Source of the DNA: an archaeon GW2011_AR5
Lineage (GTDB): Archaea; Aenigmatarchaeota; Aenigmatarchaeia; GW2011-AR5
Assembly: GCA_000806115.1 (NCBI GenBank)
Contig: JWKQ01000001.1
Coordinates: 368,915 to 432,914 of the forward strand
Length of the DNA stretch: 64,000 nt
Direction: 5' to 3'
A program made the translations under genes and the position numbers. The stretch's first letter is position 1, and each line of letters opens with the position of its first letter. The notes beneath the pieces are model-generated. The model made no database searches and was not told the DNA's origin. It saw only the letters and a program-made list of their open reading frames with translations. Positions 28,551 through 51,804 of the stretch are shown piece by piece.

Positions 28551-28697
28551 CCAAGTTATGAAATGCTCCTAATAACCCGCACCTAAAGGTGCGGGTTTCA
28601 TGGGAGCATAGCATCCAGAATGCATTGAGTTTCATCTGCCGCATAAATGCGGCAGTTTTCAATGCATTCTCGGATAATATCCAGATTCTTTACTTGG
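28551..28697 (+). repeat. family-1 multi-hairpin intergenic element, copy B (minimal form)
   Basis: Outer stem ccaagt (28551) / acttgg (28692). P1 atgctcc (28563) / ggagcat (28603) around TAATA and hairpin 28575-28596. P2 atccagaatgcattga (28613) / tcaatgcattctcggat (28659) around hairpin 28636-28655. Confidence 0.8.
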
Positions 28698-35478: not shown

Positions 35479-35621
35479 CATCTTCTTTGTTAGAAGATGG
35501 GACCCCGAATGCGCCTCTAATACATGATGAAGCTTCGCTTCACCTGTACAGAAAGAACTTCGTTCTTTCATGTGCATGCCGTCTAAAGACGGCAGTTTCA
35601 GGCACATTCAAGATAATTATC
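35479..35621 (+). repeat. family-1 multi-hairpin intergenic element, copy D
   Basis: P1 catcttc/gaagatg with loop tttgtta. P2 cgaatgcgcc (35506) / ggcacattc (35601) encloses TCTAATA and three hairpins (TTC, TTC and TAAA loops). Near-identical to copy E. Track ORF 35487..35681 lies inside and is rejected. Confidence 0.8.
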
Positions 35622-35662
35622 AGGGTCAAAATGTGCCACTTTAAAGTTATAAAAGTTTTTCG

Positions 35663-36828: not shown

Positions 36829-38802
36829 TCATGAAACAATCCTCGACACGTGCTCTTCCTTGTACACTTTTATGACATTGTCCACGAACGTGTCTATTTT
36901 CGGCTCGTGAGAGACAAGTATTATCTGCTTCAGCTGCAGCTCGGCTATTATGTCGCGTATCCTGTCAAGCTGCTCGCTGCTGAACCCGTCGGTAGGCTCG
37001 TCAAGTATAAGCATGTCCCTGGTCTTGATTGTTTCTATCATCGAGTTGATTACGCGGTTCAGCGCGAGACGGTAGGCAAGAGCCACGGCAGTTTTCTCGC
37101 CTCCTGAAAGATTAGTGTATTCAGTGACGTAGCCGTTCTGCTCTATCACCGGCGAGAAGTTCTCGTCGATGCGCACGGAAAACTGGTCACCCATTATTAT
37201 CCCGAACCATTTCTGGAAATAGTCATTAAAGGCGGACTGAAGAGCAGCCATTACATGCTTCTCGATTACGTCCATCAGGGCGGTGAAATATGAATCCATC
37301 CAGTTCATGAGCTCGTTTATGCAGAGAATCTTCTCCTTCGCTTTCCGCTTTTCCAGTATCTCGCGCTCTGCAGACTTGAGAAAGCCGTCTATATCATACA
37401 GCTGCTGCTCGCATCGCGCCTTCTCTTTTTCCGCGACAACCTTCGAGCGGTTTATGACCGATATCTCCTCCTGCACCCGCGAGAAAACTTTTGCAACCTC
37501 ATCCTCGCTGCCTGCCTGATTTGCAAGCATATCCAGTTCGCCGTGAAGGACGGCTATTTCGGAAGAAAGCGACTGCTTCTCGCCTTCCAGAGAAATCTGC
37601 TGGCGCCTGTACTCATCCAGCAAGCGGCGCTCGTACTGGAGCTTCTCGCCCCTTGACAGGTCGGACCTAAGCCCCGCCACGCTTGCAGTGATGAAATCCA
37701 TGTTCCTCTTCAGTTCCTGCATGACGCGCAAGCGCTCGTCAAGGCGCTTCTGGAAGTCGCCCTTTGAAACAGGCTGGTTGCAGAAGCTGCAAACCCCGTC
37801 CTTCATGATGCCTTCAAGACGGCGGAATTCGCTGGATACAACCGCATTTTCCCTGATAATTTTTTCCTTCTTCTCCTCCATCTCATCAATCCGGCGCTTC
37901 AGCGAAACGACGTCGACTGTTTCACCGCTCCCAGGAGCCGATGACATTTTTTCCGCTATGTCGGCAAGGTCGCGGACAACCTTTGCCTCCCTTTGCAGCT
38001 TGGCTTTCAATTCCGACTCAACCCGCGCAATCGCTTTCCGAACGGAACTAATCTCGTCCATCTTTTTTCTTACGTCCTCGAAATATTCCTGCTTCTCCGC
38101 AAGCGCCGCGTCAATCGCCGAAATATCAACAGACTGTTTGTCAAGCAGCACAAGCAACCGCTCTTTTTCCGTTTCCTTCTCCTCCTTCTCGGCAAGCTTA
38201 GCCTCGAGATCCCGGGAAACCGCTTCATTCTCCCGCTTCATGCTTCGAAGCTCCGTGACAAAAATTTTCGCATTCGACTTTATCACCCCGTATTTGTCCG
38301 TGGCAAATATTTTCCTGAGGGTGGAAAGCCTCGTGTCCGCATCAAACAATATGTCCTTCATCTTCTCCTGCGGCGTGTAAACGGTATAGCGGAAGATGGG
38401 GCGGTTTTTCTTGAGAATTTCCTGTGAATACCCGAACAGCTCGAGGATTTTCGACTTCAGTTCCACGGGCATCAATTCCTGAACCTTTCCGTCAATTATC
38501 AGGGTGCCGCTGTCCTGGCTCGCGGAGTCCTTGGTGCGCTTCAGCGTCCTCGTTATCTCAACCTCCCTGCCGTCAATCTCGAATATCAGCGTGACGCTCC
38601 CGCGGTCCTTGCCATGGCGCAGCAAATCAGTCCCTTCAAGCTCCCCCTTCCTCAAACCGAACAGCCCGAAGTCCATCGCAAGAAGTATTGTTGATTTTCC
38701 GCAGCCGACATCACCGGACAACAGCGTGCTGCCAAGAGGGAAGTCAATCTCCTGGTCAAGATAGCTCCTTATGTTCTGCAACCGTATTGATTTCAGCAGC
38801 AT
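36829..38802 (-). CDS. rad50: DNA double-strand-break repair ATPase Rad50 (short, 657 aa)
   Basis: Walker A GDVGCGKST, zinc hook CSFCNQP mid coiled-coil, signature LSGGEKTAVALA and Walker B MLILDEPT. Confidence 0.9.
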   Translation of the reverse strand: MLLKSIRLQNIRSYLDQEIDFPLGSTLLSGDVGCGKSTILLAMDFGLFGLRKGELEGTDLLRHGKDRGSVTLIFEIDGREVEITRTLKRTKDSASQDSGTLIIDGKVQELMPVELKSKILELFGYSQEILKKNRPIFRYTVYTPQEKMKDILFDADTRLSTLRKIFATDKYGVIKSNAKIFVTELRSMKRENEAVSRDLEAKLAEKEEKETEKERLLVLLDKQSVDISAIDAALAEKQEYFEDVRKKMDEISSVRKAIARVESELKAKLQREAKVVRDLADIAEKMSSAPGSGETVDVVSLKRRIDEMEEKKEKIIRENAVVSSEFRRLEGIMKDGVCSFCNQPVSKGDFQKRLDERLRVMQELKRNMDFITASVAGLRSDLSRGEKLQYERRLLDEYRRQQISLEGEKQSLSSEIAVLHGELDMLANQAGSEDEVAKVFSRVQEEISVINRSKVVAEKEKARCEQQLYDIDGFLKSAEREILEKRKAKEKILCINELMNWMDSYFTALMDVIEKHVMAALQSAFNDYFQKWFGIIMGDQFSVRIDENFSPVIEQNGYVTEYTNLSGGEKTAVALAYRLALNRVINSMIETIKTRDMLILDEPTDGFSSEQLDRIRDIIAELQLKQIILVSHEPKIDTFVDNVIKVYKEEHVSRIVS

Positions 38803-38810: not shown

Positions 38811-40004
38811 CTACAAATCAAGCAGCTTCTTCGCGTTCTCCCTGATTTTCTCCTCGAACGTGGCATTGGTTTCATCTTCCCCTTTTTCTTCTTTCAGGAC
38901 GTTCATAAGCGAGAATATCAGCCGTCCCATATCCTCACGGTTGAAAAGCTTCATGCGGTCGGCGTGCTTTGCTATGAGTTGCCTTTCCAGGTCGTCTATA
39001 TTCGTTATATTCTCCACCTGCGCCTCTTCCATCGACTCTGAAGAGAGCTTGCTTATATTCTTCTTCAGGCAGATGGCGCCCAGCGACTCGGCTTTTGCGG
39101 CAATCGATTTGAAGTCTATGTCGGACGGCTTTCCATTAAGCGTGCCGCGCAGACGCAGCAGAAGCGCGGTGTTTTCAAGGGATTCCGGCAGCATGTCCAT
39201 TATCATGTTCTCAACTTCCCCGGGCGTTTTTCCCGTAACCTCCCTGTCAACAAGAAGCGTCTCAAACATTTTCACAGGCACGTCCTTTATGCTGATTCCG
39301 CCGCCGCATTCCACAATATAGAATCCGCTGTCATAATGCTCCAGTTCGTCGAAGCTTGTGGGGAAGAGAGGACCTGGGAAGGCAACGCTCCCGCGAACTG
39401 TGTCATAAATGTGCCTCACATGTATGTGACCTGTCGCGTAGTAATCGAAGCCTTCCGGTAGGAGAGAGATTGGAACGGAACTCATGCCCTGCATGCTCCG
39501 GTGCTCGTCTATGCCGCAGTGGAACACAAAGATCTTAGTTCCATCCTCCTTCGGGATTTCAATGCGGGAGAAAGATTCCACCTCAAGCGAGCCTTTCCTG
39601 CCGAATATGCCTGCCAGTTTGCAGCCTGTCCTGGCGTCAACGGTGAATTCGAGCATAATGCGTCCATTATTCTCGGTGTATTTCGCAACGTCAACAATCA
39701 AGCCCGCATTCTCGAAGACAGAGAGCATAGTCTTGCCTGTCGGGGAGTAGTCGTGGGAGCCTGCGACCATGTAGACAGGCACTCCGGCTTCCCTGCATCG
39801 GCGAAAGCTGCTTACCGCGCGCTTGAGCACGTCTATGCCGGGCAGCGACGTGTCAAGCAGGTCGCCGGCAATGATTATGAAATCAACATTTTCAGAAAGG
39901 CAGCGGTCAATGGCAGTCTCGAAAGCGCGAATGGCGAACTCTTTCATCTCCGGATGATTGGACCAGCTTCCGAGATGGCAGTCGGACATGTGGGCGAAAC
40001 GCAT
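38811..40004 (-). CDS. mre11: DNA double-strand-break repair nuclease Mre11
   Basis: Phosphoesterase motifs MSDCHLG, AGDLLD, GSHDY and GHIH. Lies immediately upstream of rad50. Confidence 0.9.
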   Translation of the reverse strand: MRFAHMSDCHLGSWSNHPEMKEFAIRAFETAIDRCLSENVDFIIIAGDLLDTSLPGIDVLKRAVSSFRRCREAGVPVYMVAGSHDYSPTGKTMLSVFENAGLIVDVAKYTENNGRIMLEFTVDARTGCKLAGIFGRKGSLEVESFSRIEIPKEDGTKIFVFHCGIDEHRSMQGMSSVPISLLPEGFDYYATGHIHVRHIYDTVRGSVAFPGPLFPTSFDELEHYDSGFYIVECGGGISIKDVPVKMFETLLVDREVTGKTPGEVENMIMDMLPESLENTALLLRLRGTLNGKPSDIDFKSIAAKAESLGAICLKKNISKLSSESMEEAQVENITNIDDLERQLIAKHADRMKLFNREDMGRLIFSLMNVLKEEKGEDETNATFEEKIRENAKKLLDL

Positions 40005-40273
40005 GGGTAGGATATGTAATGAATTTATTTATTGCAATGAATCAGGCAGTCTAAAAGACAAACGCCAGAATATGCAGCGATTACTGCCATTTTTTCCTAT
40101 TTGGCGTTTTATGGCGGTATTTTTGTCATTTTAAAGGGATAAAAATTGGCGTCACAGGCTATTTAAGAATCGCTTCTTATTCACTTCCTACGGTATCTTG
40201 TGTTGTCTTGCGATACTACAGCTTTAAATATTAATTGTTACTACTATATAGTAACTTAATTAAAGGTGTTGTT

Positions 40274-40849
40274 ATGCCATACGAACCAGCTGAAAAGAAG
40301 AACAAGGAGAAATACGGGGCATCTTCCATAGACTCCAGAAGCTACAGGGAAAAAACCGGCTACAAAGAAGAAAGGGAGCCGCTGTCACATCACCTGAAAG
40401 ACACGAGAGCCGACTACAGTCCTCTCCGCGTGAAGGAAGAGACAGTCATCTCATCCCGCCTTGTGCCGCGCGTAGAGGATGACAAGATAAAGCCGCTACG
40501 CCTGGTTAGCAGCGAAGTTATAGGTGGAATATTCGACCGTGTGCATTTCCTTGAAAAGAGAATCAGCGAGCTTAGGGAAAACGTAAGTCTCCGCACGACA
40601 ATCCACGACCAGATATCAGCGGAAATCGAAAAAGACATAGAGGACAGGATGCAGTTCCTTCTCGCGATTTCTGACATTAATGAGCGGCGTAATCTTAAGC
40701 TGGACATTTCCGTGCTCAGGAAAGAAAGGCGCGGCGAGAACGTGCAGTACTGGCGCGATTTGGTGGAGCTGAACACGGAACTTCGAAAGCTGGAAGAGGA
40801 ACATGAAATCGAGAAGAAGATTGCAGGAATATTCGGGGATGGTAACTGA
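40274..40849 (+). CDS. coiled-coil protein (191 aa), first gene of the HerA-like operon
   Basis: ATG at 40274 after AAAGGTG. Charged heptad-rich C-half. Confidence 0.5.
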   Translation: MPYEPAEKKNKEKYGASSIDSRSYREKTGYKEEREPLSHHLKDTRADYSPLRVKEETVISSRLVPRVEDDKIKPLRLVSSEVIGGIFDRVHFLEKRISELRENVSLRTTIHDQISAEIEKDIEDRMQFLLAISDINERRNLKLDISVLRKERRGENVQYWRDLVELNTELRKLEEEHEIEKKIAGIFGDGN

Positions 40850-41103
40850 TGGTGCACACTCACTTCGTATATAACACCGGAACGCTCAACACACTCATAG
40901 AAAAGGACAGGGTGAAAGCGATACTTCTGCACGAATTCAGCAGGTATTCTCCCGTACAGACGGCAATATCCCTTTACCTGGCTGAATATTTACCCCGGAA
41001 AATAACAAAAGACCCCGAATGGAGCAGGGATCATGCAATTATACACAGATGCGTAGACGACTTTCACGACGAAAATTACTGGAGATTTCAAGGGACAAAT
41101 TAG
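40849..41103 (+). CDS. hypothetical protein (84 aa)
   Basis: Track ORF. Its start overlaps the upstream stop (TGATG). Confidence 0.45.
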   Translation: MVHTHFVYNTGTLNTLIEKDRVKAILLHEFSRYSPVQTAISLYLAEYLPRKITKDPEWSRDHAIIHRCVDDFHDENYWRFQGTN

Positions 41104-41111
41104 GCGATAAT

Positions 41112-41408
41112 ATGAAATTATACTGGGCTGCCGCAGTAAACTTCGGGAACAGAGTTGAACTCTACAAAGAGCGGGTCAACTCGAATGATTTCAGCAGACA
41201 TTCGGACACGTTTGCAATCCGTCCATTTTACAGCGACGGCGCTCCTGGATACGTGAGCCACATGGCATTCGGCAGAACGGAAGAAGATGCGGCAAGAAAT
41301 CTTGACAATCTAAATTGGCGGGAATATGCTGCAGATGTGAGGGACAGCAAGTATCGCGCAGAAACAATTCGCAGCAGCACACAAAGAGCCCGCCAGGTAA
41401 AAAGGTGA
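41112..41408 (+). CDS. hypothetical protein (98 aa)
   Basis: ATG at 41112 (MKLYWAAAV...) inside track ORF 41019..41408. Confidence 0.45.
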   Translation: MKLYWAAAVNFGNRVELYKERVNSNDFSRHSDTFAIRPFYSDGAPGYVSHMAFGRTEEDAARNLDNLNWREYAADVRDSKYRAETIRSSTQRARQVKR

Positions 41409-41413
41409 CAATA

Positions 41414-43348
41414 ATGATAGAGATAAAAGAAAGAATCTTCACGGACGAGATAAAACGGCTGTCCCCGATACTCAGCAAGCAGACAGCCGAACGGCTTTCG
41501 AAAGCTTACCTGCTCGGCGACGAGACTACAAGGAAGCGCATCATAGAGATGCTCGACATCATGAAGGCTTCCGTGCTTGCGGATCCCGAGCTTTCCGGGG
41601 CACCGCTCCTTGAGCCGCCTTCGGTGGACGGGGATATTGAGATAGGCAGCATGCTGTACGGCCGCAAGAACGTCGGACCGCTTCTCTGGGACAAGAACAG
41701 CTTCATGACGCACGTCGGCATATTTGGCTCAAGCGGGTATGGAAAAACAAACCTCTCCTACCTGATGATAAAATCCCTTTCCGACAAGGGCGTGCCCGTC
41801 GTGATTTTTGACTTTTCCAAAAAGAACTACCGCGATTTGATGCAGACGGATTTGCGCGACAGAGTTACCGTGTACACCGTCGGCAGCAACGTCTCGCCGC
41901 TGCGGTTCAATCCGCTGAAGCCGCCCGTCGGCGTCAGCAAGACGCAATGGGCGAAAGAGTTCGCGGAAATATTCGACCACGCATACTGGCTGCTCGGAGG
42001 AGGAAGACATATCATAATGAAGGCGCTTGGAGAACTGTACGAGACAAGCGACAAGCCGATACTGGACGACCTGAAGAAATACATAGAGGCGATGTCGTCG
42101 GGCACTTCGCGCGAGCGCAACTGGGTATCAACGTCAATGCGTCCGTTAGAAAGCCTTTGCATGAAGGAAACCGGCGAGATATTCTCGCTGGCTGACGGCG
42201 TGAAGCCTTCGGCGTTCTTCGAGCCGGGGAGAATCACCGTGCTTGAGATGGACACGCTGTCAACAAACGACAAAACATTCTTCATAGAGATAACGCTCCA
42301 GTGGGTACGCGACTGGCTGCTCATAAACGGAACAAGGGAGGAGCTTCACGGAGTAATCATACTGGAAGAAGCTCACCACATACTCAACAGGGAGAAGTCA
42401 AAGAAAATCGGGAGCGAAACTGTCATGGATCTCGTGTTCAGGGAGATGAGAGAGCTCGGGCTTGGAATAGTTTACCTGGATCAGCATCCCTCGATGATGT
42501 CTTATCCGGCGCTCGGCAACACGTCGACGCATATATACATGAACCTGGGTCTTGACACGCGCTACAGCAGCGACGTGCAGGACGCTGTGAGCATGCTGGG
42601 ATTGGACGACGACTACAAGGATCACATGAGGCAGTTACCGGTCGGGCACGCGCTCGTGCTTATGAGGCGCTCGGCATGGACGAAACCGTTCTCCGCAAGC
42701 TTTCCGCTTATTGAGATAAAGAAAGGGACGACGAAGGACGCCGACGTAAGCCGCATCATGAACCAGAAGATCGGAATAGTCACTGAAGACCCACAGGAAC
42801 TTGACGACGTCCAGCTGGAAATAATAAACTCAATCGGCTCAGGCAAAGGCGTGTTCACGTCGCAGCTCTACAAGCCGCTGAAGCTCTCGGGCACGGCGTT
42901 CAAGGAGAAGATGTCGACGCTGCTCCGCAACGGGACAATCGGCGTGCGCGAGGTTCGCATAGAAAAGACAAAAGCGAATTACTATTATCTGACTGCAAAG
43001 GGCGAAAAAATATTCTCTGAAAAATTCGGGTTGAAGAGCAAAAGATTTGACATAGAGAACAAGGCAAAAAGCGTATTCGGTTCTCTCGGATGGAAATACA
43101 GGCAGGACAAAAACGAGTTCATAATAGACAACGGAAAAAACATACGGCTCGTGCTGCTGCAGAACCTTGACAGGAATGAAATAGAAAGCCTGGTGAACGG
43201 CGAGACATACTATCTTTGCGCGACGCCTGAAATCAGAAATATTCTTCTTCAGAGCGCGGCAAAACTTCTTGATTCAAAAATAACCAAGATTTCCGTGGCG
43301 ATGTTCGATAGCTTTCCGGAGTCCGGCTTCATGGACTTTGTTTTCTGA
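41414..43348 (+). CDS. HerA/FtsK-superfamily (DUF87-like) P-loop ATPase with C-terminal wHTH-like and nuclease-like tail
   Basis: Walker A GIFGSSGYGKTN and Walker B VIILEEAHHIL. ATG at 41414 after AAAGGTGA. C-terminal about 170 aa looks like a winged helix (GVFTSQLYKPLKLSGTAFKEKMSTLLRNGTI) plus a small extra domain. Confidence 0.75.
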   Translation: MIEIKERIFTDEIKRLSPILSKQTAERLSKAYLLGDETTRKRIIEMLDIMKASVLADPELSGAPLLEPPSVDGDIEIGSMLYGRKNVGPLLWDKNSFMTHVGIFGSSGYGKTNLSYLMIKSLSDKGVPVVIFDFSKKNYRDLMQTDLRDRVTVYTVGSNVSPLRFNPLKPPVGVSKTQWAKEFAEIFDHAYWLLGGGRHIIMKALGELYETSDKPILDDLKKYIEAMSSGTSRERNWVSTSMRPLESLCMKETGEIFSLADGVKPSAFFEPGRITVLEMDTLSTNDKTFFIEITLQWVRDWLLINGTREELHGVIILEEAHHILNREKSKKIGSETVMDLVFREMRELGLGIVYLDQHPSMMSYPALGNTSTHIYMNLGLDTRYSSDVQDAVSMLGLDDDYKDHMRQLPVGHALVLMRRSAWTKPFSASFPLIEIKKGTTKDADVSRIMNQKIGIVTEDPQELDDVQLEIINSIGSGKGVFTSQLYKPLKLSGTAFKEKMSTLLRNGTIGVREVRIEKTKANYYYLTAKGEKIFSEKFGLKSKRFDIENKAKSVFGSLGWKYRQDKNEFIIDNGKNIRLVLLQNLDRNEIESLVNGETYYLCATPEIRNILLQSAAKLLDSKITKISVAMFDSFPESGFMDFVF

Positions 43349-43357
43349 GGCGGTAGC

Positions 43358-44452
43358 ATGAAACAAGATATAATCAGCCGAAGGGATTTCTTCAAAAGAA
43401 CCGGAGCGGCAGGAATTGCAATTGCATCCTTCACTGCAGGAGTTGATGCACATTCCTTCATAACATATTTATTCTCTGAGCAACGGGCGCCTGCATCAGA
43501 CACTTACGCAAACACATGGTTTGACGCATTTCCCGATTCGCTGCCGGGCGCGTACAAGATAGAAAAATCTGCAAGGACGCCCGGCGCAACATACGCCCTC
43601 GTGCATGTCAGGCAAAGGCATTACAGACCTGAAGCAACCGAGGCAGATCTGGCGAAAATACAGGAAGTGCAGGATGACATTTACAAAACACTATCAAGCC
43701 TCCTGGAAAAAGGCCTGATCAAGGGCGTTTATGACGAAGGCACTGAACCATTTGGCGCACAGATGATGAAAGAAATGAGAGACTTAAGGAAAAGACTGAA
43801 AACGGACATGCAAAGGTTCGAGAGAGAGCCTTTTGATGTCTATGGCATGATGATTAATTCCCAAAGGGAAATGATAGAGAGATACAGGGCAATGCTTAAG
43901 GACGAAAAGGACCCAGTACGCATAGACAGAATAAAAGAAGAAATCAGGAAAGTAGAGGCAAACATATCTGAAGGCGAAAAACTGAGAGAGCAGCAAATTG
44001 AGCTGCAGGCCAGAACAAAAGAAACAACTCAAAAGATACAGCGCGATATGGAAAAGATGGACCGGGAATCGGAGCGCACAGGCGGCGCAGTGGCAAAACT
44101 TCACAATGAAGGAAGGGTGGAAGTTTTTGCGGCAGAAACCTACGAGGCCAATCTCAGGGCGCAAATAGCAAGCAACAGGCAGTTTATAGAATTATACAAC
44201 CAGGCAATGGCGGGCGGACAGATTCCATCTGAGATACAGCTGCCGCCGGAAGTTACAGAGATGAGGGAAGACATCCTGCTTGATTTTGTTCACAAAGCTG
44301 AAGACAGAACAGCAGTGACCGTCTATGGCGGAGCGCACGACTGGGTAAACAATGTGAAACAATGGAATGGCAAAAACCCGAATGACAAATTCTCGCTCAT
44401 AGTTATAACGCCCGATGCGTATGAACGCCTGGAAAGGGAGAAGAGGCGATAA
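43358..44452 (+). CDS. Tat-signal exported protein (364 aa), possible TraB/PrgY/TIKI-like fold
   Basis: Twin-arginine motif SRRDFFKRTGAAGIAIA. ALVHVRQRH and TVYGGAHDW loosely resemble the two GxxH motifs of the TraB/TIKI family (weak). Confidence 0.55.
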   Translation: MKQDIISRRDFFKRTGAAGIAIASFTAGVDAHSFITYLFSEQRAPASDTYANTWFDAFPDSLPGAYKIEKSARTPGATYALVHVRQRHYRPEATEADLAKIQEVQDDIYKTLSSLLEKGLIKGVYDEGTEPFGAQMMKEMRDLRKRLKTDMQRFEREPFDVYGMMINSQREMIERYRAMLKDEKDPVRIDRIKEEIRKVEANISEGEKLREQQIELQARTKETTQKIQRDMEKMDRESERTGGAVAKLHNEGRVEVFAAETYEANLRAQIASNRQFIELYNQAMAGGQIPSEIQLPPEVTEMREDILLDFVHKAEDRTAVTVYGGAHDWVNNVKQWNGKNPNDKFSLIVITPDAYERLEREKRR

Positions 44453-44454
44453 AT

Positions 44455-44946
44455 ATGGTGTTCTACAATCCGTTCACGACCAGAATTTCCGGCATTAGCA
44501 ACGAGCCTATCCCGGCGATAGTTTATCCAAGCCTAGGCGCAGAAAAGGTTTTCAGCCGCAAAGAAAGAGGATGCCTGGAGAGGTACCTTCAGCAGGCGCT
44601 TGTCATCAACAAACAAAACGTTCCTTCAGACACAGAATACATGATAAGCGTTTTGTGGGAAGACAATAATAGCAAGATGGCAGATGTCAGGCTGAGCCGA
44701 CAGGTGCAAAGCTACGGATTCGGGCCGCTAAACTTCATCGCTCTTTTCAGGAATCTTGAGCCGTACACGCCTGACCCAACCAAGCCCGAGGGTCATACGT
44801 GCGGCAACGAAGATGTGATAATCGGCCGCGAGGAAGAACACAGAGTGCGTGCGGGAGAAGACAACCTTCAGGAATACCTTTTCGGCAGGCGCCCCGCGCT
44901 TCCTAAAAGGCTAAGAGTCGGAAAAAGCTTCTATCTTGTTCGATGA
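44455..44946 (+). CDS. hypothetical protein (163 aa), last gene of the HerA-like operon
   Basis: Track ORF, 2 nt after the upstream stop. Confidence 0.5.
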   Translation: MVFYNPFTTRISGISNEPIPAIVYPSLGAEKVFSRKERGCLERYLQQALVINKQNVPSDTEYMISVLWEDNNSKMADVRLSRQVQSYGFGPLNFIALFRNLEPYTPDPTKPEGHTCGNEDVIIGREEEHRVRAGEDNLQEYLFGRRPALPKRLRVGKSFYLVR

Positions 44947-45216
44947 TTACCCGAACCTTCTCACCCATTTGATGATAGTCCATCTTGAAACTTTCACCCC
45001 GCGCGACTCGAGCTGGCGTTTTACTTTTGAAGACGAAGAGCCGGACTTGTAAAGCCTCACAGCGTGCATGACGTCGCTTCGGTGAAAGCGCATCTTCGGC
45101 CAGTCTGTCGTGAATTTGCGCCCGCATTTTGTGCAAAGGTAAAGCTGCTTTTTTCCAAGGTTCGTGCGTCGAAGTCCGCGCTTCACGCCTCGTCCCGTGC
45201 AATGGGGGCATTTCAT
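44947..45216 (-). CDS. transposase N-terminal fragment (zinc ribbon + HTH, IS6/IS1-like), no catalytic domain
   Basis: MKCPHCTG...YLCTKCGRKF zinc ribbon, then an HTH-like ...VRLYKSG.S..KV...L...GVKVSRWTIIKWVRRFG. Only 89 aa, so the DDE part is absent. Confidence 0.55.
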   Translation of the reverse strand: MKCPHCTGRGVKRGLRRTNLGKKQLYLCTKCGRKFTTDWPKMRFHRSDVMHAVRLYKSGSSSSKVKRQLESRGVKVSRWTIIKWVRRFG

Positions 45217-45279
45217 AGATATGTATTTGGAGCGGCACTATTAATTTTTATACGTGCGCATCATTGTAAAATTTCATCA

Positions 45280-45453
45280 CATCTTCTTTGTATACCCACG
45301 ACTTTAGTCGTGGGTTTGTTAGAAGATGGGATCCCGAATGCGCCTCTAATTAAACATGATGAAGCTTCGCTTCACCTGTACAGAAAGAACTTCGTTCTTT
45401 CATGTACATGCCGTCTAAAGACGGCAGTTTCAGGCACATTCAAGATGAGAATC
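45280..45453 (+). repeat. family-1 multi-hairpin intergenic element, copy E
   Basis: Same as copy D apart from two substitutions, a 3-nt indel and a 28-nt hairpin insertion (45292-45319) in the P1 loop. Confidence 0.8.
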
Positions 45454-45786
45454 AGCACGAAAGGCCTCAGGAAAGAGGAAGGCTACAGCTTCGAAGATGT
45501 CAGGCGCGCGCTGATAGACTGGCACATACCTTACGAGGTTACGCGCCGCCCGGCAAGAGCGGACACGTATTTCAGGAGCTCGGCAGTGATCCTTTGCGAA
45601 AGCGACCCTGAGAAAAGGCAGGGGCACATATCGAGGGTGATGGAAAGGTTCAATGCGCGTCAATCGGACGGCTATCTTTCATGCCATGCGTACTACAGAA
45701 TTACGCCAGAGTTTGACTTATCCGTGCTGAACGGGCATCCAAAATTCTTGAATGGCATGCTTGTCGAAATTACATTAATAGGATGA
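45445..45786 (+). CDS. hypothetical protein (113 aa)
   Basis: ATG at 45445 lies in the tail of repeat E. In frame with track ORF 45064..45786, whose upstream part runs through the repeat and antisense to the transposase fragment. Confidence 0.35.
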   Translation: MRISTKGLRKEEGYSFEDVRRALIDWHIPYEVTRRPARADTYFRSSAVILCESDPEKRQGHISRVMERFNARQSDGYLSCHAYYRITPEFDLSVLNGHPKFLNGMLVEITLIG

Positions 45787-46369
45787 TGGAATCTGAGCCC
45801 GTCAAGTAACTTTCGTCACTTGTAACAGATCGAAGACCTGTAATCCAGAGGCAGAGCCTCAAGTCTGGGATGCTCTTCCATACGATATCCTATGTGTGCC
45901 GGATTACTAAAATTTATCCTAAAACGCCAAATTCTGCATTTAAAACCTCTCTCTACAGAGAATTCCTAGTTCTTAAGCGACATCACATATCGAAATGCTT
46001 TAAAAGCTTTCTATAATTACCACTTGTTGATAGTGACAAATAATATACTGTAAGTGATGCCTGAGCACCACGGAAGTAAAGGAACGGTAATATTCAACCC
46101 TACAAACATCACAGCGACAATTTTGCTTCCGCAAAATTGCACAAAAGCGTCCACGCGATGCAACAAGCTGCTCCAGCTCCATGCAAAACCTCCCGGCAAG
46201 CCCGCGAGGAATGGAGAGTCCACGAGGACAGGAACGGCTAGAAAGCTGTCTGCGCATGCATAGCGTGAGCTTTATTCAGCTGTGATTTTTCTTCAAACTC
46301 AATTCTTCCGCAAGTCTCGCACGACTTGCGTTCGTCAACCTAGACAGCCATTCCATTGGAGGACGTGCC

Positions 46370-47233
46370 ATGTGGATACTCTGGTCAACGCTGGCTGGCA
46401 TGTTCCTCGTGCCATTCTATATCAGCACACGTAAGCTGATGTGGAGCCACAATCTCGACTACGGACTGTTCATGATGAACAGGTTCCTGTTTACGCTCCC
46501 GTTCGCGGTAGTCTTCGTCGCCACTTACCCTGCTACCGGCATCGAATGGTTCGTGGTTGCCACTGGATGCCTGTACGGTTTCTCCGGAATACCCTTCCAG
46601 ATGAGCTACAAGTACACCACCGAGTTCGTCGCGGCGGTGGCGAGCGAGATGATCCCGGTTTTCGCCGCGATCATCGGATGGTTGGCGCTGAATGAACGCA
46701 TGACTCCCGGAGAAATCATTGCGTTCGTTACGGTGCTGACGGGCTCGGCGTTCGTCGTGATGAGCACATCGAACGGCAGGAAGAACGCCCTCAACGGCTA
46801 CGGACTTTTCCTGCTCGCGACAATGATGGCGGGTGCGTACAACGCTGGAACGAAGTACGCGAAGAATCTTGCCGATTTCAGCGGCTTCGAACTCCTTGTG
46901 CTCCATCGCACAGGCGTGTTCATCTCAATGATCGCGCTGCTCGCGACACCGCTGAGAAAACGCATGCTACGATTCTTCACTCTCCCAGGCGCCGAGAAAC
47001 TGAAGTTCGCGCGCAACGAACTGGTTTTCCTCGGATTCGCCGCCTCATTCGCGCTTGCGATGGCGATGCAACCGCAGGCGAGAAGCAATGGATTGATAGG
47101 CGTGATTTACTTCGGCGTGCTGCAGATAGGGCTTTTCTTGCGCGCCGTGGCAATCAGCGAAAAACACCTAGCGCGCAAGGCAGTCGGCGCCATAATCGCG
47201 TCAGCGGGACTCGTTTATCTCGCTACGCACTGA
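46370..47233 (+). CDS. EamA/DMT-family transporter
   Basis: 287 aa, about 10 TM segments. GGAGGA lies 7 nt upstream of the ATG. Confidence 0.65.
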   Translation: MWILWSTLAGMFLVPFYISTRKLMWSHNLDYGLFMMNRFLFTLPFAVVFVATYPATGIEWFVVATGCLYGFSGIPFQMSYKYTTEFVAAVASEMIPVFAAIIGWLALNERMTPGEIIAFVTVLTGSAFVVMSTSNGRKNALNGYGLFLLATMMAGAYNAGTKYAKNLADFSGFELLVLHRTGVFISMIALLATPLRKRMLRFFTLPGAEKLKFARNELVFLGFAASFALAMAMQPQARSNGLIGVIYFGVLQIGLFLRAVAISEKHLARKAVGAIIASAGLVYLATH

Positions 47234-47242
47234 GGAGATGAG

Positions 47243-47659
47243 ATGAATCCGAAAACCGCACTTATCGTAATTGTTCTCGGTATGCTCGCTCTCGGAGCAT
47301 GGGTCGCACGGCGGGGAGAAAAGCGACGGGGAGCAAAGGTCAGCGCACAGGCGCGCTTCCAGACACGGAATCCCCAAACAGCAGCGATGCTCGGTCCGTT
47401 GTTCCCGAAGAGTTCGCTGCGCATCGATGAAGGAAAGATACTCTTCGGCATCTACATCATCGCCGCCGGTACGTACACCTTGTTGTCGGTGATGCTGCCG
47501 CAGGACACCATCTGGCTGCTCGTCTTCGGCGCACTGACATTCTGCGGCGTCGGGATCTCAATCATAGGACCTGACAAGGAATCGGACTTTGTGGGTCTGA
47601 TGCTTGCAACGATGGGTGCCGCAACTGTGCTCGCAACGCTAGCCGGAATCTTTCCATAA
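47243..47659 (+). CDS. membrane protein (138 aa)
   Basis: Track ORF after GAGGAGA. One N-terminal and three C-terminal TM segments. Confidence 0.5.
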   Translation: MNPKTALIVIVLGMLALGAWVARRGEKRRGAKVSAQARFQTRNPQTAAMLGPLFPKSSLRIDEGKILFGIYIIAAGTYTLLSVMLPQDTIWLLVFGALTFCGVGISIIGPDKESDFVGLMLATMGAATVLATLAGIFP

Positions 47660-47736
47660 ATAACATTACCATTTTCGTCAACTCGGAAACATGCAGCGCA
47701 CTGACGCTTGCATTAACGGAAGGAGAAGGTTCCACA

Positions 47737-48117
47737 ATGAGTAGGAGAAGAAACCGTCTGCCGCGTACAATGGGGAAGCGATACGTGCCGCGGGCCGACA
47801 GAATCGGGCTTACGATTGGCGACAGGTCGTGGACATGGCGTCAGCTCGGCGACATGGACATCTACAACCCCCGGGCGCCATGGCTTCTTGAGTTCACGCT
47901 TGACAGGCTGGGTGTCGACACGTTCGGAAAGTTCATCCGAATGGATCCGGTGGAAATCTCGATGTACGCCGGCGATGAAACAGGCTTCGTCGCAATGATG
48001 GTGTACATGCACACGACCCACAAGGACCCGGACGACTGGGTCTCCAGAGAAGAGAAACCTGTCAGGTGGAGCACTCACAAACGCCGCCTGAAGAAGAGGA
48101 AGAGACAGCAACGCTAA
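47737..48117 (+). CDS. hypothetical basic protein (126 aa)
   Basis: Track ORF after GGAAGGAGAAGG. Arg/Lys-rich termini. Confidence 0.5.
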   Translation: MSRRRNRLPRTMGKRYVPRADRIGLTIGDRSWTWRQLGDMDIYNPRAPWLLEFTLDRLGVDTFGKFIRMDPVEISMYAGDETGFVAMMVYMHTTHKDPDDWVSREEKPVRWSTHKRRLKKRKRQQR

Positions 48118-48182
48118 CCAGCATCAGGGGGAACAGAGAATTATGGAGCCTCCGCACCGCAATACAAAGAAAGGAGACGGCT

Positions 48183-48989
48183 GTGTATACAGAACAGGAA
48201 GTCAGGACAATCGCCGTGTTCGCGCTGCTGGCGATCGTCATTGGCAGGAACGCGCGTTCGCGCGCGGCGTTCTTCACGCTTGCCATGTTCGGCGGCGTCA
48301 TGACATTCAGTGCCCTGATGAACGCCATCGTGCCGGTGCTCAACAAGACTCTGGACAGGGACGCCATGGGAATCACAGCGCTGCTCGCTGCATTCGTCCT
48401 CTCGATGCTGCTCGCTGTCGCAACTCTGTATGCGAGCATGCGCAGCAAGGTCCCGAAGGAACCATCCCGCAACTCCGGCGCATGGACTGCGTTCGCCGTA
48501 ACGCTCATCATCGTCGGCGCCGTCGCGAACATGTACAGCGCCGTTCTCGCAAGAGTGCTGATGGCGCTCGGCGTCTGCGTCTTCTTCGGAAGGCAGCTGA
48601 TGAAAAGGGGTGCAGTCATCCTGCTTGCGGTCCTGATGTCAGGGTGCAGCGGCAACGGTGATAGTTCGCTCTGGGCAGTCGTCCTGCTGGGAGTGTTTGC
48701 CCTGCTTCGTGCGCTCTCGCCCGGAATTGTCGGCGCAGCAACGGGAGAACGCAGTGTCGACGAAGACGACGGCGCGCACTGCACGGACTGCAACGCCTAC
48801 TCTTCGAAGTCCTGCGCCAAGTGCAGCACGCCGTTCTGTGAGAACTGCGCGAAGCGCACGCTGAACAATCAGCACATGTGCGCACAGTGTTCGGGTGAAG
48901 CGGAAGTCGCTTGCCCGAGGTGCGGATACGCGACGACGATCTCGCACATGGAGGACGTCTGTCCGGTGTGTGCAGGGAGTGAACCGTGA
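48183..48989 (+). CDS. multi-TM protein with C-terminal multiple zinc-ribbon (CxxC x5-6) domain
   Basis: Same frame as track ORF 48066..48989. I prefer the GTG at 48183, preceded by AAAGGAGA. C-terminus HCTDCN...CAKCS..FCENC...CAQC...CPRCG...CPVC. Confidence 0.55.
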   Translation: MYTEQEVRTIAVFALLAIVIGRNARSRAAFFTLAMFGGVMTFSALMNAIVPVLNKTLDRDAMGITALLAAFVLSMLLAVATLYASMRSKVPKEPSRNSGAWTAFAVTLIIVGAVANMYSAVLARVLMALGVCVFFGRQLMKRGAVILLAVLMSGCSGNGDSSLWAVVLLGVFALLRALSPGIVGAATGERSVDEDDGAHCTDCNAYSSKSCAKCSTPFCENCAKRTLNNQHMCAQCSGEAEVACPRCGYATTISHMEDVCPVCAGSEP

Positions 48990-49228
48990 GAACATTTCTC
49001 GTTGTCGTTGTCATCGCGCTGGTGCTGGACTTCGTACTTTTCGGCGGCGCGTTCACGATGCTCGTCATCGGGTTCGGCATCACACTGGTGGCGCTGCTCT
49101 TCGGGTTCGCAACCGGAATCGTCAAGCTCGTGCTGGGCACGGCTGCGATGTTACTTGGCATGGCGATTCCATTAGCTGCGCTGCTCGTCGTCGGGTTCGC
49201 GATTTGGTTTTTCGTTTTTCGCCGTTAA
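48986..49228 (+). CDS. small two/three-TM membrane protein (80 aa)
   Basis: Track ORF. GTGA overlap with the upstream stop. Confidence 0.45.
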   Translation: MRTFLVVVVIALVLDFVLFGGAFTMLVIGFGITLVALLFGFATGIVKLVLGTAAMLLGMAIPLAALLVVGFAIWFFVFRR

Positions 49229-49252
49229 CGCGCTATGCGCAAAGGAGACTCT

Positions 49253-50461
49253 ATGATCTGGTGGTTCACTCTCGCTCTGCTCGTCGGGGTCGGCATGTTC
49301 ACGTTCGCGAAGTGGAACGTCCTCTCGGACAACAACAGGAAGACGGCACTCGTTGGTGACGCAGTCCTATTGATTGCGCTGTTCACCGGCAGTTTGCTCT
49401 GGTGGCTCTGGCTCGTGGCGTTCGTGTTCAGCGCCGTGCATCTCGGAGTCAACTGGAAGAGGATGTCGTTTGACGGCAGGCTCGGCGCGTGCATCCTGCT
49501 GGCCGTCCTCGCGATGTTGCTGTTTGCCACCAAGGGCTTCTACTGGTGGCTGGCGCTCGTCGTGCTGATCATCACCGGCATCGTCGGCGCGTTCGTCTGG
49601 CGCGGAGCATCGCCCCGATCCCGCGCGGGACTTGCCGGAGTCGCCGCCCTGCTCTTGCTGCTGCTATTCCTGCTGTACGACGCGAAGCAGCCGCTGAACT
49701 TCATGGGCGGCGAAGCCCAGGCTGCACCGACAACGCTCGGCGACCAGGCGCAGCACACCGTCGTGCGTGGCGACTGGCTGCGGAACATCGCGCCGCGCTA
49801 CAAGAACGTCGGGTGGGAATCCCTGCTGCTGCGCAACGAGCCGTTCCTGCAGGCGAAGTACGAAGAAGTCTGCGGGAAGCTGAACGAGCGGTACACGAAC
49901 AACCCGAAGCGTCACGGCACGTTCTGCAACGAACGGTACAACCGCCCGTACGGCAACACGCTCGTGCCGGGATGGGTGCTGGCGATTCCGTCGGGCAGTG
50001 CGCCGCAGCAAATTCAGGACGCTGTCATCACGTCGACAGGGCAGAAGGTTGCGCTTGTCATTGACGACAGCGGGTCGATGAACGATGATCGCACGCGCGT
50101 TGCGTTGATGTACGACGCCGCGCTGCGGAAGCACGGCAAGAACCTCATCGGCGTGTGGCTGTACGCCGACGGCCAGGTTCGTCACTACAGCGAGGGCAAT
50201 GTGGAGCTGCACACCACCGGTAACGTCGAGAACACGTGGAATGCGTTATCCGAGGCGGCGAAGGAGAAGCCCGACACCATCATCCTCGTCACGGATGAGG
50301 TCGGCGACGACTGGCCGGCTGACCTCAAGAAGGCGGGCACCGGCTGGTTCACAAAGATGCCGCCCGTCGTGGCAACGTGCCTGCCGCCGTACGAGTGTGA
50401 AGTGACGCTCAACGCGCTCGTCAACGCGTTCGGCGGGAAGTACGTCCGGTACGGGCAGTAG
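49253..50461 (+). CDS. membrane-anchored LysM-like + von Willebrand factor A (vWA) domain protein
   Basis: N-terminal TM bundle. HTVVRGDWLRNIAPRY...LVPGWVLAIP is LysM-like with an insert. vWA MIDAS VALVIDDSGSM plus ...IILVTDE. ATG at 49253 after AAAGGAGA. Confidence 0.7.
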   Translation: MIWWFTLALLVGVGMFTFAKWNVLSDNNRKTALVGDAVLLIALFTGSLLWWLWLVAFVFSAVHLGVNWKRMSFDGRLGACILLAVLAMLLFATKGFYWWLALVVLIITGIVGAFVWRGASPRSRAGLAGVAALLLLLLFLLYDAKQPLNFMGGEAQAAPTTLGDQAQHTVVRGDWLRNIAPRYKNVGWESLLLRNEPFLQAKYEEVCGKLNERYTNNPKRHGTFCNERYNRPYGNTLVPGWVLAIPSGSAPQQIQDAVITSTGQKVALVIDDSGSMNDDRTRVALMYDAALRKHGKNLIGVWLYADGQVRHYSEGNVELHTTGNVENTWNALSEAAKEKPDTIILVTDEVGDDWPADLKKAGTGWFTKMPPVVATCLPPYECEVTLNALVNAFGGKYVRYGQ

Positions 50462-50588
50462 AAGTTCACCGGGCCGTGTTGTAAAGAACACGTGTAGTGT
50501 TCTTACACAGGGCATGCCGGATAACTCAAAGGTATGCCCTTGTGTCAACACGGTCCACAATATCAACAACTTTTCAGGAGACAAAGCG

Positions 50589-51350
50589 ATGAAGCGAATC
50601 CTCATCATGCTCGCGCTGCTCGTTGCGGCAAGCGCGTGCAGCAACAAGAAAGAAGAACCGCAGCAAGCCCGGCAGTCACCTCAGGCACAACCCACGCAGA
50701 CAGCGGTGGCACAGCCTGAGACGCCAAAACAACTCGCGCCCGCGAAGACTGAAGAAGACGTGATGAAGGAGTGGCGCGATGAGAAGGGCATCCCGACGCT
50801 CGACTCCATCACCATCGAGAGCGTGCGGCAGCTCGCTAATACGGTAATGGAGAAGGATCCGTACAGCGAACACTTCACTATCGACGGCCATGTCAGTGAG
50901 GGTTTCGGAAACGGCGTCGATACGCTCTTCGTCGCGCAGCTGATCGCGCGCCAGAACCGTTACCTCGAAAGTGTGTTCAACAAGATGCCGGTGCTGCAAC
51001 GCCGTGAAGTCGTCCAGCAGGCGGCGAACATCGTTGCGTCGCATGCTACCAGCTACCTGCACCCGAACGACCTGCGTGCGTGGCTGGTGAACTACGAATG
51101 GAAGCGCGACATCGAGCCGGTCAATCCCGACTGGTATCAGGGCACGAAATGGCCGGAGAATCGTCTCGAGCCCGTGGAGCCCACGCTGAGCAGTGACAAC
51201 GAGAGCGGGCGCATCAAGGATCCGAAGGCGAAGGGTTTCAAGCTCTCGAAGGTGGATCTCTGGTGGCGGATGTTCTGGAAGCGCCGCGGGGAAATCATCT
51301 TCAACGCAGCGAAGTCGGCTGCTGCTGCGGAGCTCGCGAAGAAGCGATGA
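50589..51350 (+). CDS. putative lipoprotein (253 aa)
   Basis: MKRILIMLALLVAASAC has a lipobox-like signal. ATG at 50589 after CAGGAGA, inside track ORF 50514..51350. Confidence 0.55.
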   Translation: MKRILIMLALLVAASACSNKKEEPQQARQSPQAQPTQTAVAQPETPKQLAPAKTEEDVMKEWRDEKGIPTLDSITIESVRQLANTVMEKDPYSEHFTIDGHVSEGFGNGVDTLFVAQLIARQNRYLESVFNKMPVLQRREVVQQAANIVASHATSYLHPNDLRAWLVNYEWKRDIEPVNPDWYQGTKWPENRLEPVEPTLSSDNESGRIKDPKAKGFKLSKVDLWWRMFWKRRGEIIFNAAKSAAAAELAKKR

Positions 51351-51433
51351 ACAACAAGAAAGGCAAACCAGGCAGGGCGAAGCGAAGCCTTTCCGCTGCA
51401 AGAAGTCCTGTAAAATCAGAGAGGGTGCCATGA
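51347..51433 (+). CDS. possible basic micropeptide (28 aa)
   Basis: My own translation gives MNNKKGKPGRAKRSLSAARSPVKSERVP. ATGA overlaps at both ends are the only support. Confidence 0.2.
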   Translation: MNNKKGKPGRAKRSLSAARSPVKSERVP

Positions 51434-51765: not shown

Positions 51766-51804
51766 CGTCAGGACAGGGCGCGGCTCTACAGCGCGGCGAA
51801 GGCC

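Follow-up and report, generated by a model that had tools for sequence, protein, structure and literature searches.

Six co-directional open reading frames (ORFs) form a compact operon in the 64,000-nucleotide stretch of contig JWKQ01000001.1 of the archaeon GW2011_AR5 that was analysed here and is referred to as the window. We are confident that this operon is a two-gene module, consisting of ORF1 and ORF4, that carries lineage-specific cargo, and not a six-gene system. ORF4 encodes an ATPase of the HerA/FtsK superfamily and ORF1 a coiled-coil protein, and we lean towards the view that the former is a non-nucleolytic DNA translocase and the latter its partner, that the two go back to a translocase-nuclease and are vertically inherited, and that their role is a housekeeping one. 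The ATPase superfamily is already known, as is DUF8104, the uncharacterised Pfam entry to which the coiled-coil protein is related. What appears to be undescribed is the ORF1-ORF4 architecture and its obligatory pairing, its conservation throughout the Aenigmatarchaeota, the loss of a nuclease, and the cargo slots; no paper in the literature searched links DPANN, HerA and FtsK.

An earlier note, made from the letters of this DNA, had described a tight six-gene operon around the ATPase. All six ORFs were found on the plus strand at the coordinates claimed, and the packing is as close as it was said to be, with junctions of -1, 8, 5, 9 and 2 nt from ORF1 to ORF6. The operon is laid out as follows.

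40176-40273, plus strand: upstream control region (putative), with a TATA-like box and a Shine-Dalgarno (SD)-like motif before the ATG of ORF1
40274-40849, plus strand: ORF1, 191 amino acids (aa), core gene, coiled coil, DUF8104
40849-41103, plus strand: ORF2, 84 aa, ORFan, cargo in slot A
41112-41408, plus strand: ORF3, 98 aa, basic, cargo in slot A
41414-43348, plus strand: ORF4, 644 aa, core gene, HerA/FtsK-superfamily P-loop ATPase
43358-44452, plus strand: ORF5, 364 aa, twin-arginine translocation (Tat) signal, cargo in slot B
44455-44946, plus strand: ORF6, 163 aa, subclade-level companion, no fold assigned

By a crude gene call, gaps of at most 10 nt separate same-strand neighbours in 14 of 48 cases in the window and no other tight run is longer than four genes, so that five successive tight junctions are unusual here and make this the tightest array of the window. 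The starts of ORF1, ORF3 and ORF4 are internal ATG codons within longer ORFs, and SD-like GGTG or GAGG precedes each of ORF1, ORF4, ORF5 and ORF6. Ahead of ORF1 the SD-like motif is GGTG at 40265-40268, and a TATA-like TTTAAATA is found at 40223-40230, 44 nt 5' of the ATG; judged from consensus only, 40176-40273 would be the promoter. The segment 40176-40255 is 81% conserved in L090, the locus of the closest relative (related loci are numbered with the prefix L), and homology with L008 likewise begins at 40176, the genes farther upstream being different. ORF2, ORF3 and ORF5 appear to be real genes, because they are conserved in L090 with a ratio of nonsynonymous to synonymous substitution (dN/dS) below 1.

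The case for a two-gene module comes from the neighbourhoods of related ATPase genes. Scanning a genome collection with an alignment of the ATPase produced 86 confirmed loci from species-level genomes, and 80 of these, for the most part from metagenome-assembled genomes (MAGs) of Aenigmatarchaeota, were kept for neighbourhood counts, in which every ORF of each locus was translated and then searched with the window proteins. A homologue of ORF1 is located directly upstream of the ATPase gene in 77 of the 80 loci. As estimated by tblastn spacing in 74 informative loci, the gap between the two genes is at most 60 nt in 60 loci, often in the form of a 4-nt overlap and leaving no cargo between them, 60-150 nt in four, and more than 150 nt in ten. 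The identities of ORF1 and ORF4 to the window proteins co-vary (r = 0.63). Homologues of ORF2 and ORF5, on the other hand, occur in none of the 80 loci, and those of ORF3 and ORF6 in one locus each, being otherwise confined to close relatives. All-versus-all clustering of the ORFs within 6 kb of the ATPase in these loci yielded no recurrent family besides ORF1 and a small Zn-ribbon gene that lies next to the operon in the window. A conserved six-gene set therefore fails, since ORF1 and ORF4 alone stay paired; the conservation in other genomes on which the earlier note had staked its proposal is lacking for four of the six genes and holds for these two. Even the set of ORF2, ORF3 and ORF5 recurs only in the 92%-identical relative, L090, which has two extra genes inside its operon.

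Selection separates the genes in the same way. Between the window and L090, dN/dS is 0.045 for ORF1 and 0.085 for ORF4, as against 0.50 for ORF2, 0.26 for ORF3 and 0.52 for ORF5; for ORF6, compared with L091, it is 0.13. The neighbours of the pair in the relatives are housekeeping genes, including those for ribosomal proteins, tRNA synthetases, CTP synthase, PCNA and eRF1, and in a complete Aenigmatarchaeota chromosome of 1.05 Mb (L020) one copy was detected. Among named genomes the closest, at 81% identity, is that of Aenigmatarchaeota RIFCSPLOWO2_01_FULL_48_10. In this genome (L008) the ATPase gene is split into two overlapping ORFs, 6001-6558 and 6534-7931, with a short duplicated stretch, which is either an assembly error or a pseudogene.

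Variable genes are found at two positions, slot A between ORF1 and ORF4, and slot B between ORF4 and ORF6. The contents of the slots in the window and in its closer relatives, with the identity of the ATPase in brackets, are given below.

Window: slot A, ORF2 and ORF3; slot B, ORF5, then ORF6
L090 (92%): slot A, ORF2 (79%), ORF3 (73%), a 94-aa gene and a 375-aa AAA+ gene; slot B, ORF5 (76%; the contig ends within the gene)
L091 (83%): slot A, four unrelated genes including three paralogues; slot B, an unrelated 217-aa gene, then ORF6
L092 (81%): slot A, a 205-aa gene, the slot being cut by the contig end; slot B, an 88-aa gene, then a shortened ORF6
L001 (69%): slot A, a 74-aa gene; slot B, nothing before ORF6
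L006 (74%): slot A, two small HxxxCxxC proteins; slot B, a 678-nt stretch without a called gene, then ORF6
L008 (81%): slot A, two small HxxxCxxC proteins; slot B, a 184-aa gene, without ORF6

The exchange at these slots is sharply bounded. L006 and L007 share 92% DNA identity from exactly the ATPase start codon, with unrelated sequence upstream of it, and they also differ by a 790-nt indel comprising ORF6 and the Zn-ribbon gene; likewise, L090 carries between ORF3 and ORF4 a precise cassette of 1.45 kb, with two genes, by which it differs from the window. Slot A holds unrelated ORFans in seven distant loci as well (L012, L023, L050, L052, L055, L056 and L072). When 20 cargo proteins of the relatives were compared with Pfam, one gave a clear match above the cut-off, to the AAA+ domain Sigma54_activat, and two others gave weak matches just below it (Methyltransf_25 and Acetyltransf_2). 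As for the cargo of the window itself, the sole homologue of ORF2 that was found is that of L090, with 79% aa identity, and homologues of ORF3 are present in L090 (73%) and L007 (38%) and in part in L091. ORF6 has homologues downstream of the ATPase in L091 (73%), L092 (59%, shortened), and L001 and L006 (both 40%); L007, L008 and every distant locus are without it. Neither ORF2, ORF3 nor ORF6 matched a family in Pfam, PADLOC, NCBIfam or PHROGs, and ORF6 matched nothing in the PDB.

Two kinds of slot protein deserve a brief description of their own. The AAA+ protein of L090 (2625-3752) is of the bacterial enhancer-binding type (Sigma54_activat, E 6e-56; PADLOC RtcR_PspF2, E 1e-80), with an N-terminal 117 aa that have no assignment, and its presence inside an archaeal operon is likely to reflect horizontal acquisition. 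The pairs of small proteins in slot A of L006 (1542-2084) and L008 (5472-5999) are 79-96 aa long and share an H-x3-C-x2-C motif; by eye only they have the look of zinc-binding anti-sigma (ZAS) domains, and they have no Pfam match.

ORF4 matches more than 600 database proteins, and the best 120 of them are 47-92% identical to it from end to end; throughout the phylum its full-length identity stays at about 50%. Its DUF87 match in Pfam scores 47.3 bits versus a cut-off of 23.2, and there are weak matches to TrwB and HerA_C. Both Walker motifs that had been claimed for it, GSSGYGKT at aa 105-112 and ILEEAH at aa 316-321, are among the 132 invariant columns in an alignment of 24 diverse members, the invariant residues including G105, S106, G108, G110, K111, T112, E318, E319, R343, R346 and Q357. 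The AlphaFold model, with a predicted local distance difference test (pLDDT) score of 79, and the profile matches divide the protein into four parts.

41414-41581, plus strand: N-terminal three-helix domain, aa 1-56, with helices at 2-15, 22-34 and 37-56 in the model
41636-42703, plus strand: ATPase core, aa ~75-430, with Walker A at 41726-41749 and Walker B at 42359-42376
42806-43024, plus strand: winged helix-turn-helix, aa 465-537, MarR/Lrp-like
43055-43342, plus strand: C-terminal alpha/beta domain, aa 548-643, PD-(D/E)xK-like, catalytic residues absent

In the model a linker and beta hairpin lead from the N-terminal domain to the core, which there spans aa ~100-430. The winged helix, which the earlier note had suspected together with a small extra domain at the C-terminus, shows an H-H-H-beta-beta pattern; its profile matches the structures of AdcR, LrpA, FabT-like and SlyA proteins at E 3e-4 to 1.5e-3, Pfam HTH_45 matches at E 0.01, and the weak matches span aa 468-536. 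The extra domain is also present, with the topology alpha-beta-beta-beta-alpha-beta-alpha-beta and pLDDT 82-91. When the model was compared with the PDB by Foldseek, the top match was Sulfolobus HerA (4d2i, E 2.6e-14), followed by HerA-NurA, Sir2-HerA, DUF4297-HerA, TdpAB, VirB4 and TrwB; no viral structure gave a closer match. The protein is thus a non-canonical member of the HerA/FtsK superfamily that lacks a NurA partner, as had been supposed.

The nearest known system by structure is HerA-NurA (Sulfolobus 4d2i; Thermococcus 9x1m), with which ORF4 shares the RecA-like HerA/FtsK-superfamily core, the Walker A and B motifs and the DUF87 match. Like that system, ORF4 is probably a ring translocase acting on double-stranded DNA, its small partner being encoded by the adjacent gene. 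Canonical HerA holds NurA through its HAS barrel. In ORF4, by contrast, the model contains no HAS beta-barrel before the core, a three-helix domain standing there instead; the partner is a DUF8104 coiled-coil protein rather than NurA, for which no Pfam match was obtained in any of the six ORFs at E ≤ 0.1; and the C-terminus bears two further domains, a winged helix and a dead endonuclease-like one. We propose that the three-helix domain takes the place of the HAS barrel and docks ORF1. Its motif is kept in the distant relatives L094 and L096.

FtsK and SpoIIIE belong to the same ATPase superfamily, and the gamma domain of FtsK is a C-terminal winged helix that reads DNA. The order of motor and then winged helix in ORF4 may be considered analogous to this in layout; the winged helix of ORF4, which matches regulators of the MarR/Lrp type, could likewise read DNA. 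Unlike FtsK/SpoIIIE, ORF4 has no membrane anchor (no transmembrane (TM) segment, with a maximum 19-residue Kyte-Doolittle score of 1.09) and no match to FtsK_SpoIIIE PF01580 at E ≤ 0.1, and its core is closer to HerA.

The partner protein, ORF1, has a charged and variable N-terminal tail (about aa 1-70) followed by a conserved coiled-coil core (aa ~75-187), with 31 invariant columns in its alignment. It is a soluble protein with no TM segment. Precomputed Pfam assigns DUF8104 (PF26406), a domain of unknown function, to three close homologues of ORF1 and also matches it weakly to three distant ORF1-like proteins; the local Pfam scan of ORF1 itself did not return DUF8104 at E ≤ 0.1. DUF8104 is not mentioned in the literature searched. 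A profile of the family, for which the query was built from database proteins, matched 143 of 1.84 billion representative proteins at E ≤ 1e-3 and 47 at E ≤ 1e-30. Against the PDB sequences it gave a single chance-level match, and the searches of Pfam, PADLOC, NCBIfam and PHROGs with ORF1 returned coiled-coil noise only.

Four distant DUF8104-like proteins, taken from the weak tier of the representative search, were looked up, and a DUF87 ATPase adjoins the DUF8104-like gene in all four cases. In L094 and L099 the DUF8104 gene is upstream of the ATPase gene and overlaps it, in L093 it is downstream, and in L096 a fragment downstream of the DUF8104 gene opens with the N-terminal motif of the ATPase family. 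Aligned with the ORF4 family by hhalign, the L094 ATPase gave 100% probability over 573 columns, from the N-terminal helical domain into the C-terminal domain, and a BLASTP alignment of ORF4 with L093 extends through the winged helix. At their C-termini these two distant relatives carry the PD-(D/E)xK pattern of nucleases, in L094 as EHEYY...GKAVDLVA...SIAIEVETGK and in L093 as EHRYW...SIDIVV...AIEVA, and the same regions give weak and consistent matches to families of the restriction-endonuclease fold, namely Mrr_cat (E 0.008), MTES_1575 (E 3e-4 to 0.013), an AHJR-like family (E 0.016) and Cas4 (E 0.17). In the Aenigmatarchaeota ORF4 family the motif positions are not conserved (for example NEFIID and IRLVLL). 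Because the aligned positions lack acidic and lysine residues, the C-terminal domain of ORF4 is best read as a catalytically dead, endonuclease-like module that may bind DNA.

From homology to ring translocases, ORF4 would form a hexameric ring like that of HerA and, driven by ATP, travel along double-stranded DNA or pump it, with the winged helix and the dead endonuclease-like domain binding or selecting the DNA. The coiled coil of ORF1 would dock on the three-helix domain, and ORF1 could then serve as adaptor or regulator by means of its tail, which is long, charged and variable. The intact PD-(D/E)xK motif of distant relatives suggests that the module began as a translocase-nuclease, and in the Aenigmatarchaeota it would have become a strongly constrained, vertically inherited chromosomal gene pair. 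The likeliest role would be a housekeeping one in the handling of DNA, for example in the segregation, resolution or repair of chromosomes; such a role is favoured because the distribution looks phylum-wide and vertical, the constraint is strong, the pair is non-mobile and the nuclease has been lost. ORF2, ORF3 and ORF5 are lineage-specific passengers at two insertion-prone positions and would be co-expressed with the operon; ORF6 is a subclade-level companion.

Several observations weigh against a housekeeping translocase. No conserved neighbour among the 80 loci indicates a specific cellular role, and the scan was pattern-limited, so that the phylum-wide claim rests on its 86 loci; the record titles of the 80 loci name Aenigmatarchaeota in 31 cases, most of the others saying "archaeon" and a few bearing other labels. 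The best PADLOC match of ORF4 is mad8 (E 3e-15), for which the MADS preprint gives no domain description, and HerA defence models match as well. L094 has a Tiamat TmtA homologue (E 5e-84), a DUF6094 methyltransferase and a PriCT_1 protein as neighbours, which is a defence-island or mobile context, seen in a single case. The fast turnover of flanking genes, including the VapBC pairs of L091 and L092, resembles a defence island, and the PIN-domain genes that lie close around the module in several near relatives, mostly with a small upstream partner in VapBC-like fashion (L091 5836-6412; L092 3299-3875 and 4226-4886; L001 5868-6525 and 11508-12063), add to the impression that the flanks gather mobile or conflict genes.

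These points lead to the strongest of the rival explanations, that the module is a conflict system of the HerA-ATPase type directed against viruses or plasmids, in which ORF1 and ORF4 would form a scaffold of sensor and motor and the slot genes would be exchangeable effectors, sensors or counter-counter-defence genes. We regard this as possible, and as deserving serious attention, without expecting it to be correct. The HerA anti-phage systems (Sir2-HerA/Nezha, DUF4297-HerA, TdpAB and the mad8 component of PADLOC MADS) pair a HerA-type ATPase with a second protein, as is the case here, and are structural matches to ORF4 at E 1e-11 to 1e-10. In distant relatives of ORF4 the ATPase is joined in one protein to a nuclease that seems intact, and such genes can be part of a defence island; L093 matches mad8 at E 3e-26, and it is L094, with its intact nuclease motif, that adjoins the Tiamat, methyltransferase and PriCT_1 genes. 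The quick turnover of cargo between near-identical genomes, the elevated dN/dS of the cargo, the VapBC and PIN genes just downstream in L091, L092 and L001, and the RtcR/PspF-like AAA+ protein in the slot of L090 would all be expected of such a system. Defence systems are normally patchy and mobile, however, and the ORF1-ORF4 pair turns up at almost all of the loci sampled from one phylum, with one copy detected in the only complete chromosome that was scanned. Purifying selection on it is very strong, its neighbours are housekeeping genes, and its distribution looks vertical. The obvious effector, the nuclease, has lost its motif in the ORF4 family, and ORF1 has no effector domain (Sir2, DUF4297, nuclease or NADase). 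ORF4 scores far below the cut-offs of the NCBIfam anti-phage HerA models (34.8 versus 800 bits for NF042943, 13 versus 850 for NF042944), ORF1, ORF2, ORF3 and ORF6 have no PADLOC match, and 60 of the 74 informative loci have no cargo between the core genes.

A related and more speculative scenario, to which we give somewhat less credence still, is that a translocase-nuclease conflict module, composed of a DUF8104 partner and a HerA-type ATPase-wHTH-endonuclease, was domesticated at the root of the Aenigmatarchaeota, becoming an essential, nuclease-dead chromosome motor that stands in for FtsK in cells of very small size, with its operon since serving as a favoured place for the landing and expression of fast-evolving ORFan cargo. 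To our knowledge, Archaea mostly lack FtsK, and DNA segregation, repair and acquisition are poorly understood in DPANN archaea, with their genomes of about 1 Mb. If the domestication scenario were true, the locus would combine a core machine with a hotspot of gene innovation. More generally, a pair kept across a DPANN phylum at about 50% identity, and mentioned nowhere in the literature searched, is a concrete candidate for a core DNA-handling machine. It offers a natural example of a HerA-superfamily motor that appears to have exchanged the HAS barrel for a helical domain and NurA for a coiled coil, and then to have lost its fused nuclease, and so bears on the interconversion of defence-type and housekeeping translocases, while the two cargo slots provide a defined place in which to find new, fast-evolving DPANN genes. 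Should the module prove to be a defence system after all, a defence module inherited vertically throughout a phylum would itself be unusual.

That ORF4 is a motor for DNA transfer or uptake of the Ced, VirB4 or VirD4 kind, moving DNA between the DPANN cell and its host, is improbable. DPANN archaea depend on host-derived material, which counts in favour of the idea, and CedD is the best match of ORF4 among the characterised NCBIfam families (E 3.4e-19, aa 70-415), exceeded marginally and over a shorter stretch by NF033849, a serine-rich subfamily of unknown function. There are also weak matches to TrwB, TraG, TraD and VirB4, and VirB4 and TrwB are structural matches. The CedD score is nevertheless 68.9 bits versus a cut-off of 600, and VirB4 and TraD score 12.3 versus 643 and 13.6 versus 366. 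CedD is the DNA-import ATPase of Sulfolobales, and CedB and CedD often carry TM segments (PMC11868833). Unlike many of these proteins, and unlike the ATPases of type IV secretion systems, ORF4 has no TM segment, nor has ORF1; ORF4 also has no VirB4-like N-terminal domain. In the 80 loci the surroundings of the ATPase show no recurring gene for a CedA/VirB6-like channel, a pilin or a relaxase, and ORF5, the sole exported protein, is not conserved with the module.

The genes upstream of the operon suggest another role, and they are arranged as the earlier note had said, adjacent to ORF1 and divergent from it.

36829-38802, minus strand: rad50, with SMC_N and SbcC Walker B (Pfam)
38811-40004, minus strand: mre11, with Metallophos (Pfam)

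It could be imagined that ORF4 is a canonical HerA helicase of DNA end resection working with the adjacent Mre11-Rad50, its nuclease partner going unrecognised among the small ORFs, and Sulfolobus HerA is indeed the closest solved structure. We consider this very improbable: canonical HerA-NurA with Mre11-Rad50 is contradicted by the architecture described above, by scores of 28.8 versus 800 bits and 18.5 versus 970 against the HerA equivalogs NF040937 and NF040819, and by a linkage that is incidental, none of the 80 related loci having an Mre11 or Rad50 homologue at up to 6 kb from the ATPase. The conserved part of the partner is a coiled coil of about 120 residues, which could not accommodate a nuclease fold. 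In close relatives, different genes stand upstream of ORF1; because these occupy the position that mre11-rad50 fill in the window, a rearrangement breakpoint is placed near 40176, and the adjacency would be a local rearrangement. By eye only, the upstream genes in L008 (706-1722 and 2873-4585) and L090 (2-388) look like those of an MreB/actin-family protein and a 570-aa FtsZ/tubulin-like protein.

Downstream, the operon meets a convergent gene and a repeat.

44947-45216, minus strand: Zn-ribbon gene, 89 aa, CxxC..CxxC plus helical part
45315-45455 and 35486-35623: hairpin-rich repeat of ~140 nt, direct copies 9.8 kb apart, context outside the module

The first had been taken for a truncated transposase gene. 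It is instead intact, since its orthologues have the same length and are syntenic: they are 89-109 aa long and 44-75% identical, and in 14 of the 80 loci they follow the ATPase gene at a distance of no more than about 4 kb downstream. The gene is present in a single copy in the window, and its product has zinc-finger-like matches in the PDB and weak matches to transposase ribbons in Pfam (E 0.06); it is read as a small DNA-binding protein. The repeat, also noticed earlier, is real, its two copies being 96% identical.

The least probable of the explanations is that the operon is the remnant of a plasmid or virus integrated between these repeats: they do enclose a 9.8-kb segment with the operon, an ORF5 homologue stands beside an integrase elsewhere and PHROG 7035 matches the ATPase (E 1.5e-14), but the segment has no integrase, replication or capsid gene and includes mre11-rad50, the core pair is chromosomal and independent of the repeats in 80 other genomes, no relatives were found in IMG/VR, the matches in phage and plasmid databases are confined to the ATPase domain and are 22-28% identical, hairpins whose loop motif is that of the repeat are scattered in the window, and L001 has a 90% match to part of the repeat. 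The suggestions of a conjugation-like module or a virus or plasmid remnant, raised when the operon was first described, find no support: the segment has neither membrane components nor integrase or relaxase, and housekeeping genes surround the relatives. Two relatives on bacterial plasmids are about 1050 aa long and lie in unrelated contexts.

The Tat signal predicted for ORF5 is supported by TIGR01409 (17.4 versus 16.7 bits, aa 6-26) and consists of SRRDFFK, an h-region, and then VDA|HS. The family is small, with six homologues among 5.8 billion protein clusters. One of these, the 60%-identical P0122, has lost the RR motif and sits with genes for an integrase, FKBP, Fic and MazEF, with no ATPase there. 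In the model of ORF5 (pLDDT 81) a coiled coil of about 120 residues (aa ~131-250) is inserted into an alpha/beta core, and the conserved motifs are LVHVxQxH, VYxEG, REDxLL and VYGGxHDW..N..WN..NP..KFSL. A resemblance to TraB/PrgY/TIKI proteases had been suggested, and it gained no support from Pfam, PDB sequences or Foldseek. In seven family members there was no Pfam match to TraB, ChaN or erythromycin-esterase at E ≤ 10; no PDB sequence matched, and Foldseek gave no match at E < 0.1, its top matches being coiled-coil noise. The long insertion could mask a remote relationship to these proteins.

Some features of the remaining sequence may be recorded. The second copy of the ~140-nt repeat, with its flank (45285-45460), folds far better than shuffled sequences (-65 kcal/mol, z = -5.9), and it is a 60-nt piece at 45276-45335 that matches L001; an exact-pattern search for the repeat in the related loci found nothing. 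The repeat could be a structured RNA or an element like a miniature inverted-repeat transposable element. G+C-rich intergenic stem-loops of 7-10 bp with a C/A-TAAA-G/T loop occur at 11156, 26934, 28574, 28636, 35577, 45294 (minus strand), 45409, 59289 (minus strand) and 62255; the window contains 11 hairpins with a TAAA loop versus about two expected from shuffles, nine of them sharing the C/A-TAAA-G/T form, and they may be a family of terminator-like or repetitive extragenic palindromic elements. The two adjacent repeat units at 11026-11197 and 28558-28677 are 78-82% identical, and their stems differ by compensatory changes, for example CTCTGGAC..GCCCAGAG versus CCCGCACC..GGTGCGGG, which suggests a conserved RNA structure beyond mere sequence conservation.

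Downstream of the operon, the non-coding blocks 45787-45856, 45920-46048 and 46105-46162 are 80-92% identical to L091, L092 or L008, exceeding the DNA identity of the ATPase gene itself (75-76%). They have no Rfam match at E ≤ 1 and are candidates for small RNA genes or regulatory elements. Beyond them, the region 47000-52000 has a G+C content of 56-62% versus about 49% elsewhere and may be a foreign island; its ORFs have little or no family assignment, those that were scanned giving no Pfam match except one sub-threshold LysM, and one has a Cys-rich C-terminus. The flanks of the window encode RNase HII, an MFS transporter and an EamA transporter. The sole Rfam match at gathering level in the 64 kb is a partial tRNA at 60822-60877 (31.5 bits), which was not called by ARAGORN and may be an intron-containing or split tRNA, both of which are common in DPANN archaea.

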